DNA from: a virus
Strand: one strand, 5' to 3'
IMG/VR virus record: IMGVR_UViG_3300001685_000001
Length of the DNA stretch: 64,000 bases
Shown: positions 37,183 to 58,046 of the stretch, piece after piece
How positions within the stretch are numbered: the first letter of the stretch is position 1
How the letters are laid out: the number at the start of each line of letters is the position of its first letter
The notes under the pieces: generated by a model
Seen by the model: the letters and a program-made list of their open reading frames with translations, nothing else
What the model was told of the DNA's origin: nothing
The model's database searches: none
Translations under genes and position numbers: made by a program

Positions 37183-37258
37183 TGGTGACTCAGGAAAGAC
37201 TTGAACTTCCGACACCCTGAGCTTCAATCAGGTGCTCTACCAACTGAGCTACTAAGTC
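37183..37258 (-). tRNA. tRNA-Phe(GAA), unusual G37 C38
   Basis: 76-nt cloverleaf, CCTGA-TTGAAGC-TCAGG, encoded CCA. Confidence 0.92.
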
Positions 37259-37262
37259 ATTT

Positions 37263-37345
37263 TGGTCAGGAATGTTAATTTCGAGTTAACGACCCCCAGC
37301 TTCTGATTTGTTATGCTGGTGCTCTGCCATCTGAGCTAATTCCTG
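37263..37345 (-). tRNA. tRNA-Pro-bodied tRNA-like RNA with a 14-nt anticodon loop
   Basis: Acceptor CAGGAAT/ATTCCTG, A73 and CCA are identical to the tRNA-Pro; stem CCAGC/GCTGG encloses ATAACAAATCAGAA. Confidence 0.8.
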
Positions 37346-37349
37346 TTGT

Positions 37350-37434
37350 TGGCACGAGTTGAAGGAGTTTAACCTCTTGAAAACGGGTTTGGAATCCGTC
37401 AGCATGTACACACGCTTTTAATTCTCTAACTCGC
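37350..37434 (-). tRNA. Degenerate tRNA-Trp(CCA)-like gene
   Basis: ACGGA-TTCCAAA-CCCGT, G73, CCA; ~9-nt insertion before the D arm; T loop TTAAACT. Confidence 0.6.
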
Positions 37435-37439
37435 ATAAT

Positions 37440-37513
37440 TGATACCCCATAGGAGTTTCGAACTCCTGATTTCGCATAGAAAGTGCGATGTCTTACCACT
37501 TGACCAATGGGGC
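37440..37513 (-). tRNA. tRNA-Glu(TTC), unusual T37 A38; 3' end reads ATCA (no encoded CCA)
   Basis: TCGCA-CTTTCTA-TGCGA; T arm AGGAG-TTCGAAA-CTCCT. Confidence 0.88.
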
Positions 37514-37516
37514 ATA

Positions 37517-37593
37517 TGGTCAGGAATGTTGAACTCGAATCAACGACCCCTAGCATCCAAAGCTAGTGCTCTACCAAACTGAGCTAATTCCTG
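37517..37593 (-). tRNA. tRNA-Pro(TGG), unusual A37
   Basis: C1-G72, A73, CTAGC-TTTGGAT-GCTAG, CCA. Confidence 0.92.
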
Positions 37594-37601
37594 TAATAAA
37601 T

Positions 37602-38129
37602 TTATGAAGAATATCTCCATTTAAATCCACCTGCTGTCTTTCGGGTGTCGCCTCTCCAGTCAATACCTCTTACAGCATATAAGATAGTGCTAGGAGATTT
37701 TATATTATTCTTTTTTGATGCTTCAGCCATAGATGGATAGGAAGACATATAGTTGCCATCTAAATCCAATTTATCTACGCTTCTTTGGTTCGATTTTTTA
37801 CCAAGTAAGCCATTCTCTTTTTGATGTTTTAAGTTTTCTGCCTGTGTAATAGCCTCTAAATTACTTATCTTGTTATTTAGTTTATTTCCATCAATATGAT
37901 TTATTTGCATTCCAATACACTTGCTTCCAAAATAAATCACACCTAAAACTTGATGCACTTGTAAGAGTTTCTTTTTAACTTTCACTCGTAAGTATCCAGT
38001 TGAACTACAAATAGTACCATTTGTTCCTTTTGGAGTAGTGATAATACCTTCAATAATGTCATAATTGATATTTTCAAGGTTACTACTTATAAAATTGTAC
38101 ATATCAATAGACATTCCAGCATTACTCAT
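37602..38129 (-). CDS. Free-standing HNH homing endonuclease (HNH_3 + NUMOD1-like)
   Basis: VHQVLG...INHIDGNKLNNKISNLE; C-terminal DLDGN...YPSMAEASK. Confidence 0.85.
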   Translation of the reverse strand: MSNAGMSIDMYNFISSNLENINYDIIEGIITTPKGTNGTICSSTGYLRVKVKKKLLQVHQVLGVIYFGSKCIGMQINHIDGNKLNNKISNLEAITQAENLKHQKENGLLGKKSNQRSVDKLDLDGNYMSSYPSMAEASKKNNIKSPSTILYAVRGIDWRGDTRKTAGGFKWRYSS

Positions 38130-38182
38130 AATTCCATCTCCTGTTATGTGTCAATAAATAGTTTTTAATAGAATATAAAGTG

Positions 38183-38502
38183 TTGTTAGCTAACCAGCCA
38201 AGAGGCATCCAATAGAGTCAATAAACAACCACTCATAAGCCTTTAATCTTGGATTTAATCGAAGTTTTATTCTTAAAAACTAAACGTTGAGTTCATAAGA
38301 ACTTTGAACCTTAACCTTTGAATCTTAAACTTTGAAATTTGAGCTTTTATCCCATATACGCTCTCTGAGTGTAATATAAAGTACATTCGCTTATCCTTAT
38401 TTGGATTCAAATTTTCATCTGTTAGATGTAAAGTTAATTTGGAGAGCTTTACCCTGCTCTCCGATAGGGTGTTTAGTCCATTAGATTTCGATTAACTAAC
38501 AA
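38183..38502 (-). ncRNA. Candidate ~320-nt structured ncRNA (closing helix, pseudoknot, heptamer-repeat domain)
   Basis: 13-bp end-to-end helix, nested 8-bp and 6-bp helices, H-type pseudoknot, no ORF. Confidence 0.75.
38262..38348 (-). repeat. Tandem 7-nt repeats (consensus YAARGTT), 7 + 4 units
   Basis: AAAAGCT CAAATTT CAAAGTT TAAGATT CAAAGGT TAAGGTT CAAAGTT [10 nt] CAACGTT TAGTTTT TAAGAAT AAAACTT. Confidence 0.85.
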
Positions 38503-38519
38503 TGTTATTTAACTAATTA

Positions 38520-39143
38520 TTAATCTTCAATTGTAATTCTTGTAATCGTGTTGCTCTCTGAAAGCGTGAAATCCACTTCCATGTTGAAGTCCTCGATACT
38601 CTTAACCAACTCATTAATCTGTTTCTCCAAGTTAATTGGGTCAATGAAAGTAGCCTCGTTGTCTGCTTTAAAAGCCTTCACAATGTCTTCATGTGACTGA
38701 GCATTAACTTTACCTTCTTTACCGAACAGCGTTTCCAAGTGAGAGTCTAAACGAGCTTTCATCTCATTGTTAATACGGTCAACATGATTTACCACCTGAG
38801 TATAAGTTGAGCGCATTTTACTTAGTAATTGCTCTTCATAAGAAATAGAAGTCTTTCTCTCAATTGCTTCAGCTACCGTCATTTTAACTCCTGCTACCTC
38901 AACAACAGTTGTTGCATTGGAAAGTACAATTGCAGATTTAATTGCGTTTCTGCGTTTTAACAAATCTTTTACTGATTGATAATCTGATTTGGCACGTTTT
39001 TCAACATCTTCTACTGAGCTATATCCAGTAGGCAATTTCTTACCAACTGAGTTACTTCCTAGAACAGCCTCATTGATTGAACGATTAATGCGTGAGTCTA
39101 ATAGCTTTAATTCTGCTAAGCCTCTTGTAATAGTCATTTCCAT
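38520..39143 (-). CDS. Coiled-coil protein resembling the DIP1984 (septicolysin-like) family
   Basis: MTITRGLAELK...IVLSNATT...MTVAEAIERK...VDFTLSESN; matches the recalled LAEAL/N..T/D..L...N pattern. Confidence 0.6.
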   Translation of the reverse strand: MEMTITRGLAELKLLDSRINRSINEAVLGSNSVGKKLPTGYSSVEDVEKRAKSDYQSVKDLLKRRNAIKSAIVLSNATTVVEVAGVKMTVAEAIERKTSISYEEQLLSKMRSTYTQVVNHVDRINNEMKARLDSHLETLFGKEGKVNAQSHEDIVKAFKADNEATFIDPINLEKQINELVKSIEDFNMEVDFTLSESNTITRITIED

Positions 39144-48730: not shown

Positions 48731-49029
48731 GCACTTATAACCTTTGTTAGTACTCGTTCAAAATCTTGAAGGTTACTTGTATTCATGGGAACATCTTTCA
48801 CAACTTCAATGTAAGTCGAACCAAAATCATATGTTAACATAGCTAACAACTTGTTTTGTATAGTGCTAGTGGATTGACTATATTTTGTCATATTGACGAT
48901 TATGCAACCATCATCATATTGAGCTAAAACAGTACTATAATTTACTAAAAAGTTACCGTCACTTTTTAGATTTTTTGTTTTGCCTGATAAACGATTAGAA
49001 AACATTTCAATTACATCAACATTTTTCAT
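48727..49029 (-). CDS. Early conserved phage protein
   Basis: LVNYSTVLA...N.TKYSQSTSTIQ motif. Confidence 0.7.
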   Translation of the reverse strand: MKNVDVIEMFSNRLSGKTKNLKSDGNFLVNYSTVLAQYDDGCIIVNMTKYSQSTSTIQNKLLAMLTYDFGSTYIEVVKDVPMNTSNLQDFERVLTKVISA

Positions 49030-49391
49030 AGTGATAAGCCTCCGATAATTTCATTTATATTTGTTGTAGCATCGATAAACATCATACAGTTATTTATTTC
49101 TAAACTAATACACCACTGGTTCAATTCTAAACAAATATATTTTGCATATTCTACCAAAGTATAAAGGTTGTCACTGTTTAACACTTCAGCGAACGCATAT
49201 ACAAGCGTATTTTCTTCAGTATGTAAATTTCCATTGTCGTCAATCCATGCACCGTTTTGGGCGATAGATGAACAACCACCAAACAATGAAGACAACTTAA
49301 TCATTGCTTGTTTTACGTTGATAATATTATCGAACGTTTTACCCTCTTTCGATTGAGTAGGAATAATAATCGCAACTTTATTTTTTAACAT
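49026..49391 (-). CDS. SAM lyase/SAMase-like protein (T3 gp0.3/PII-like fold candidate)
   Basis: LFGG....NGAW...HTEENT...AKYICLELNQWC vs T3 LYGS....TGCY...PTEEKT...ARLACNEWEQDC (recalled). Confidence 0.55.
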   Translation of the reverse strand: MLKNKVAIIIPTQSKEGKTFDNIINVKQAMIKLSSLFGGCSSIAQNGAWIDDNGNLHTEENTLVYAFAEVLNSDNLYTLVEYAKYICLELNQWCISLEINNCMMFIDATTNINEIIGGLSL

Positions 49392-57521: not shown

Positions 57522-58046
57522 ATGTTAGAATTAAAACAGTATAATTTATTAGAAGAAATTGATGGGTACGGTGAAGAAGACATCATAGAAGAAATGTCAA
57601 ATTATGATGGCAGCACTTATGTTTGTGATGCAATTTCAGAAATAGCAGATAGCAATATCCCAATTTACAATAATGACATTTGGAAGAATGTACAGGACAT
57701 TCAAGAATACATTGAACAAGCGATTTCAAGTGGAATCGTAGATACTAGTCACAATGGTATTGATTTAATTAAAGTGTTTCAAGGTGGCTATTATGAATAC
57801 AATACACAATTGTTATATGCGAACCTTGATAGTGTAGCTTTCAATATGGTTGCTGATAAGCTAAATGAATATTTCAATACACTAACAGAAGAACAACTAA
57901 CAAGTCTAGATTTAACAGAAATCGAAGAAGAGTTAGAATCCAAAACAGAGCATTTTGATAATAATAACTATCTTAGCGTGATTGATGATATTTTTGAAGA
58001 GTTGAAGGAAGAAATAGAAGAAGGCTTTGAAGATTCATCTGAGTAA
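57522..58046 (+). CDS. Ocr-like DNA-mimic anti-restriction protein
   Basis: DAISEIADSNIPIYNNDIW vs T7 Ocr DAIHMAADNAVPHYYADIF (recalled); DLIKVFQ..YYE; strongly acidic. Confidence 0.7.
   Translation: MLELKQYNLLEEIDGYGEEDIIEEMSNYDGSTYVCDAISEIADSNIPIYNNDIWKNVQDIQEYIEQAISSGIVDTSHNGIDLIKVFQGGYYEYNTQLLYANLDSVAFNMVADKLNEYFNTLTEEQLTSLDLTEIEEELESKTEHFDNNNYLSVIDDIFEELKEEIEEGFEDSSE

Follow-up and report, generated by a model that had tools for sequence, protein, structure and literature searches.

The tRNA array and its genomic context

The window, a 64,000-nucleotide stretch of viral DNA (IMG/VR record IMGVR_UViG_3300001685_000001), comes from an SPbeta-like temperate phage, in which the tRNA array is followed by YonK, YonJ, YonG and terminase genes. 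ARAGORN and Rfam agree on three tRNAs in the array and no more, all on the minus strand, with scores of 60-66 bits against an RF00005 cut-off of 29. Each has a cloverleaf with paired stems and a 7-nt anticodon loop, the register of which is fixed by a perfect 5-bp anticodon stem. The three genes are tRNA-Pro(UGG) (37517-37593), with the loop UU-UGG-AU, that is, A37 (at 37556) and U38; tRNA-Glu(UUC) (37441-37514), with the loop CU-UUC-UA, carrying U37 (at 37478) and A38; and tRNA-Phe(GAA) (37183-37258), with the loop UU-GAA-GC, in which U32, G37 (at 37222) and C38 are present. These calls and the perfect stems bear out the three position-37 bases named in the original prediction, which had been made from the letters of the window. 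Position 37 is a purine in the Pro and Phe genes and a pyrimidine in the Glu gene. A reading of the Glu loop as that of a shifted Arg(UCU) was rejected by sequence inspection because the stem cannot re-pair.

The three genes were compared with aminoacyl-tRNA synthetase identity elements, drawn partly from PMC9976931. The tRNA-Pro gene keeps G72 (in a C1:G72 pair), A73, G35 and G36, encodes the CCA end and contains an unusual A53:U61 pair that is found in this gene alone among 83 viral tRNA-Pro. In tRNA-Glu, U11:A24, the short (4-nt) variable loop and the anticodon are kept; A37 is absent, a G1.U72 wobble is present and CCA is not encoded. The tRNA-Phe gene, which encodes CCA, has a D arm and a variable loop identical to those of Bacillus tRNA-Phe and retains U20, U45, A73 and the anticodon, with G59 replacing U59.

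Two further elements on the minus strand, both located between the Glu and Phe genes, received no ARAGORN or Rfam call. One, read from the sequence, is a degenerate tRNA-Trp(CCA)-like element (37350-37435) with an intact acceptor stem and CCA end, in which the D arm is swapped for 27 nt and the anticodon and T stems contain mismatches. The other (37263-37345) is a duplicate of the tRNA-Pro body, 75% identical to 37517-37593, with a 14-nt anticodon loop. Because its differences from the Pro gene are compensated stem changes (at 28:42 and 52:62), the fold of the duplicate may still be maintained and not be in decay. An HNH endonuclease gene (37602-38129; phrog_59, E 7.5e-24; PF13392) lies immediately upstream of the array, on the same strand; it has no match in the syntenic relatives and is a possible vehicle of the tRNA cassette. 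Past the gene for a 207-aa protein, a non-coding region with short repeats (approximately 38175-38520, minus strand) is conserved in the prophage relatives L016, L050-L055 and L064.

An identical array is present in a 166-kb contig in ENA, from a marine metagenome, that contains the phage; this contig is possibly the source of the window itself and so provides no independent proof against sequencing error. Independent support comes from the recurrence of the loops of the window in unrelated phages. The host was approached via prophage relatives identified by exonuclease matches. The best matches (75, 72, 66 and 59% identity) all fall within the family of G002/Lederbergia citrisecunda, and those in the Bacillus haynesii family reach only 34-35%. 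Heyndrickxia, Lederbergia, Peribacillus, Bacillus and one Ureibacillus MAG harbor related prophages, and at the resolution of these relatives the phage would infect Bacillus-like bacteria. Codon use in the phage, per 1000 codons, is 57 for GAA, 11.5 for CCA, 16 for UUC and 25 for UUU. Promoter-like sites upstream of the array do not exceed the number in shuffled sequences (13 compared with 17.2).

Loss of the TrmD site in tRNA-Pro

All 144 host tRNA-Pro matches, which come from 58 genomes, carry G37-A38 (hand count), and the same holds for the hosts of the closest prophages. In the tRNA-Pro of the window, G36 is followed by A37, so that the G36-G37 dinucleotide required by TrmD (PMC5372744) is missing; given this specificity, the TrmD site is gone and m1G37 would not be needed. 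The likely benefit of A37 would be a tRNA that functions free of this modification. Loss of m1G37 leaves A37 tRNAs unaffected, as noted for a recoded A37 tRNA-Arg in trmD mutants (10.1101/2021.07.14.452415). Among phages, Pro A37 is also found in BcoS-136, FADO, VPT02, MAG1 and Acba_22; the 'Pro(CGG)' call in Iacchus was left out of the Pro count on account of a doubtful fold.

A paired switch at positions 37-38 of tRNA-Glu

Host tRNA-Glu has A37-C38 in 17/17 copies as well as in the further host tRNA clusters examined, and no Glu or Asp tRNA with a base other than A37 was detected in 121 genomes (15 pattern hits compared with 14 control hits). Both Pro A37 and Glu U37 depart from every candidate-host isoacceptor that we found, as had been expected. 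The further claim that U37 is especially rare is true of cells; among the sampled Bacillus phages it is the usual state of tRNA-Glu. Indeed, U37-A38 occurs in all nine Glu genes of eight cultivated Bacillus phages, a set chosen by similarity and biased accordingly (BcoS-136, FADO, G with two genes, PBC6, Saddex, Bcp1, BCP78 and Mater). In viral tRNAs at large, 28/102 Asp and 70/124 Glu genes (the latter set seeded on U37) have a pyrimidine at position 37, compared with only 14/1930 genes for other amino acids; it is accompanied nearly always by A38. Glu genes that share one identical anticodon stem carry UA (10), AC (6) or CA (2) at positions 37-38, and a tRNA-Glu tree built without these two positions requires at least 19 changes of state, compared with 46 for shuffled labels, although the alignment is short and the tree weak. 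The dinucleotide switches as a unit from the host AC to UA, as it does in phage tRNA-Asp.

A37 is a listed determinant for GluRS, and C38 for AspRS (PMC9976931). A repeated switch away from a GluRS determinant should therefore be costly and call for a benefit, of which escape from a Glu/Asp anticodon nuclease is the simplest. [quoted passage not shown] With UA in place of AC, the m2A37 site is lost, and Glu/Asp anticodon nucleases have most likely lost the site that they recognize or cut. Both STECO31 and WapA-CT natto, we assume, cut between C36 and m2A37 of tRNA-Glu. A U37-A38 tRNA-Glu would then survive when the host tRNA-Glu is cut, and the near-confinement of pyrimidine 37 to Glu and Asp, a pattern in the genes themselves, fits the evasion of a Glu/Asp anticodon nuclease. 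A literature search on phages and U37 returned no relevant paper.

A cellular allele in tRNA-Phe

The case of tRNA-Phe is different. Chromosomal Phe genes with G37 are present in 17 of 151 Bacilli genomes (approximately 11%), in 16 of them with the exact loop of the window, and the same loop is found in two of the four hosts of the closest prophages (G495 and G517, not G002 and G046). A separate hand count of 90 Bacillota Phe genes, all with A37, missed the G37 lineages seen among the 151 Bacilli. The assertion that all three tRNAs are non-canonical at position 37 accordingly holds for Pro and Glu and fails for Phe, the base of which is shared by host isoacceptors in a subset of the Bacilli that includes hosts of close prophages. 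Nor does G37 imply independence from host enzymes, given that S. aureus tRNA-Phe(GAA) is methylated to m1G37 (PMC13443448). Loss of miaA as the cause of G37 in cellular tRNA-Phe was rejected, the gene being kept in all three G37 genomes tested.

Phages ISP (with the same loop), G, CR8 and VPT02 also carry Phe G37. The phage gene resembles S. aureus tRNA-Phe(GAA) and the similar Bacilli alleles in its G37, but is identical to either cellular type at only 54-59 of 73 bases. Phe G37 is thus an allele that occurs naturally in bacteria; it may match that of the host and may still be methylated. The combination of U32, G37 and C38 would either match the host or have been acquired from a host with this allele, and no special cause need be invoked. 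Sophrita (L415) and G607 (L452), both of which encode a homolog of the lyase-like protein described below, have a tRNA-Phe with C37-A38.

A predicted SAM lyase and A37

As the best explanation, to which as a whole we assign a probability of roughly 55%, we propose that three working tRNA genes occupy a variable tRNA slot of an SPbeta-like phage and that each allele arose separately, the tRNAs probably being transcribed as part of the leftward operon around them and processed by enzymes of the host. Compatible with this explanation, and addressing tRNA-Pro alone, is a tentative link to another gene of the phage. The ORF at 49026-49391 (minus strand) encodes a 121-aa protein, a candidate functional partner of tRNA-Pro A37. 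Its family profile matches the Svi3-3 SAM lyase (E 6.4e-4), and its structural model (pLDDT 95.5) has 6zm9/6znb as the best fold matches (E 4.7e-6). The conserved residues G47, E59 and Q92 correspond to G56, E69 and Q104 of the known lyase (PMC7877911). The ORF shares the fold and these three residues with Svi3-3 and the T3 SAMase, but the sequence identity is only about 19%, and from sequence and model it is a predicted SAM lyase. Homologs in Bacillus, Lactobacillus and Staphylococcus phages are annotated as hypothetical. Elsewhere in the window, a gene at 57522-58046 (plus strand) matches PHROG 2568, with an ocr-like anti-restriction annotation (E 2e-36), and is a second anti-restriction candidate.

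Under this scenario, the phage would deplete SAM and thereby block restriction-modification; G37 tRNA-Pro made from then on would remain unmethylated, charge poorly and slip frame, and the A37 tRNA-Pro would supply proline without TrmD, being indifferent to the loss of m1G37. The distribution of the two features is in line with this possibility. A37 is present in the tRNA-Pro(UGG) of all six lyase-bearing phages that have this gene (the window, BcoS-136, Sophrita, C30-3, G607 and Lactobacillus phage 3-521), compared with 13/35 phages without a detected lyase (Fisher p 0.006); the six represent about three lineages, and counted as such the association has p of about 0.05. All 13 tRNAs with a G36 anticodon in seven lyase phages carry A37, including the five in BcoS-136 (L001:4787-7171), in which the Asp and Glu tRNAs both have U37-A38. 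Conversely, none of the 22 phages with G37 tRNA-Pro has a lyase match, nor does the close prophage in G002, which carries a G37 tRNA-Pro.

The association is, however, one-way and suggestive as judged from the genomes. A SAM lyase as the general cause of Pro A37 was rejected, as 13 of 14 control phages with Pro A37, including FADO, have no lyase match, a count subject to the caveat that the genome search may miss distant lyases. Furthermore, the small number of independent lineages counts against the link, the lyase activity itself is a prediction, U37 is left unexplained, and two lyase phages retain G37 in tRNA-Phe. No paper linking phage SAM lyases to the sequence of phage tRNAs was found in a literature search. 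A still broader proposition, which we regard as doubtful, is that phages that destroy SAM to counter restriction would keep A37 in their G36-anticodon tRNAs for TrmD-free translation while U37-A38 in Glu and Asp would mark a widespread Glu/Asp anticodon nuclease of the Bacilli.

Are the tRNA genes maintained?

Alternatively, the tRNAs could be redundant occupants of a turnover slot, under relaxed selection, with loop bases that changed by drift or arrived together with the cassette and are of no benefit at present. Several features of the locus point in this direction, namely, the two degenerate neighbors of the intact genes, the HNH gene beside the cassette, the A53:U61 pair of tRNA-Pro and the lack of an encoded CCA in tRNA-Glu. 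Among the syntenic relatives, the corresponding slot is empty of tRNAs, contains a single tRNA-Pro with G37 or holds an array in partial decay, a variation that indicates turnover and that, together with the two degenerate elements, suggests that selection on the slot is weak or intermittent. In the syntenic prophage of G517, the array (L404:8301-9287) retains a single intact gene, for tRNA-Arg, alongside several decayed ones, among which is a tRNA-Glu with U37-U38.

Against this alternative stands the state of the genes themselves. In a comparison with Bacillus-type isoacceptors, 40 stem pairs are the same, 19 differ in both bases and 3 in one base, and no pairing is lost; the D arms are identical or nearly so; from these double-sided changes, the intact pairing and the near-identity of the D arms, it follows that the tRNA structure is under purifying selection, as far as sequence comparison can tell. 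Drift also sits poorly with the confinement of pyrimidine 37 to two isoacceptors, nearly always with A38, and with the repeated switching suggested by the tRNA-Glu tree, short as its alignment is. We therefore regard the absence of any present benefit as unlikely.

Three separate changes rather than one

The original prediction took three changes at one position as the product of selection, either for nuclease resistance or for independence from host modification enzymes. As a class of explanation this remains reasonable for genes under structural selection; a single shared cause does not emerge from the comparisons. All three tRNAs also depart from the Bacillus-type loop at position 38, and tRNA-Phe does so at position 32 as well, so that position 37 is not singled out. 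Across viral tRNA arrays, the three position-37 variants show no pairwise co-variation (Fisher p 0.45, 0.32 and 0.16). By contrast, Glu U37 co-varies with Asp U37 (p 0.002) and Pro A37 with His A37 (p 0.0002); relatedness is ignored in all these tests. The position-37 pattern in these arrays sorts by anticodon class and not by one pressure.

The frequencies of the variants are Pro A37 4/27, Phe G37 9/20 and Glu U37 0/25 in Asn-seeded viral arrays, a set that includes giant-virus contigs, and 3/8, 4/5 and 2/15, respectively, in protein-seeded relatives, so that the triple is uncommon at random, with the reservation that our phage samples are biased by similarity or by pattern. Among 28 other loci in which the three genes occur together and the Glu gene has U37, 8 carry the triple, compared with about 5.6 expected if Pro and Phe were independent (hand count). 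The idea that all three changes were driven by one nuclease, or by escape from position-37 modification in general, could draw on this recurrence and on the SAM-dependent marks that all three host sites carry in B. subtilis (m1G37 in Pro, m2A37 in Glu and ms2i6A37 in Phe; PMC7408541, PMC13443448), but is highly improbable given the lack of co-variation, the alterations at position 38 and the status of Phe G37 as a cellular allele that S. aureus methylates. The comparisons favor three separate changes, each common in other phages, over one new trick.

Relation to known systems and implications

Phage tRNAs in which the anticodon loop is altered are a known class (PMC10264068, PMC12409363), and the locus belongs to it. 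Van den Berg et al. (2023; PMC10264068) proposed that mutations in the anticodon loops of phage tRNAs serve to evade anticodon nucleases, and in that study, as here, intact phage tRNAs depart from the host isoacceptor at loop positions other than the anticodon, with function deduced from sequence. In the parts of that paper available to us, the focus is on mycobacteriophage C1 and VapC targets, unlike in the present case, and neither position 37 nor the U37-A38 switch in Glu and Asp of Bacillus phages is singled out. The T5 variants of tRNA-Lys, -Thr and -Asn that resist AriB of the PARIS system (PMC12409363, PMC11464382) similarly carry substitutions at or near the cut site in the anticodon arm; their resistance, however, has been demonstrated and maps to positions 39-41, whereas the tRNAs of the window are known from sequence alone. 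Close counterparts are the eight Bacillus phages with Glu U37 listed above, and vB_BcoS-136 in particular shares with the window the anticodon arm of tRNA-Glu as well as Pro A37-U38, and encodes a homolog of the SAM-lyase-like protein. Several arrays of these phages are much larger than the three intact genes of the window (17 tRNAs in BcoS-136).

As a single locus, the array is ordinary, each of its alleles being present in cultivated phages, and the comparative pattern is of greater use. The fresh lead is limited to the SAM lyase and tRNA-Pro, where A37 may offset the effect of the phage's own predicted SAM-destroying enzyme. In tRNA-Glu, the prevalence of U37 among phages indicates that neither a purine at position 37 nor a listed GluRS determinant is indispensable, and the restriction of U37-A38 to Glu and Asp offers a sequence fingerprint for finding the host nuclease. 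If the link to the SAM lyase is true, an anti-restriction enzyme would be tied to the sequence of a tRNA gene, providing a testable reason why phages carry tRNAs.
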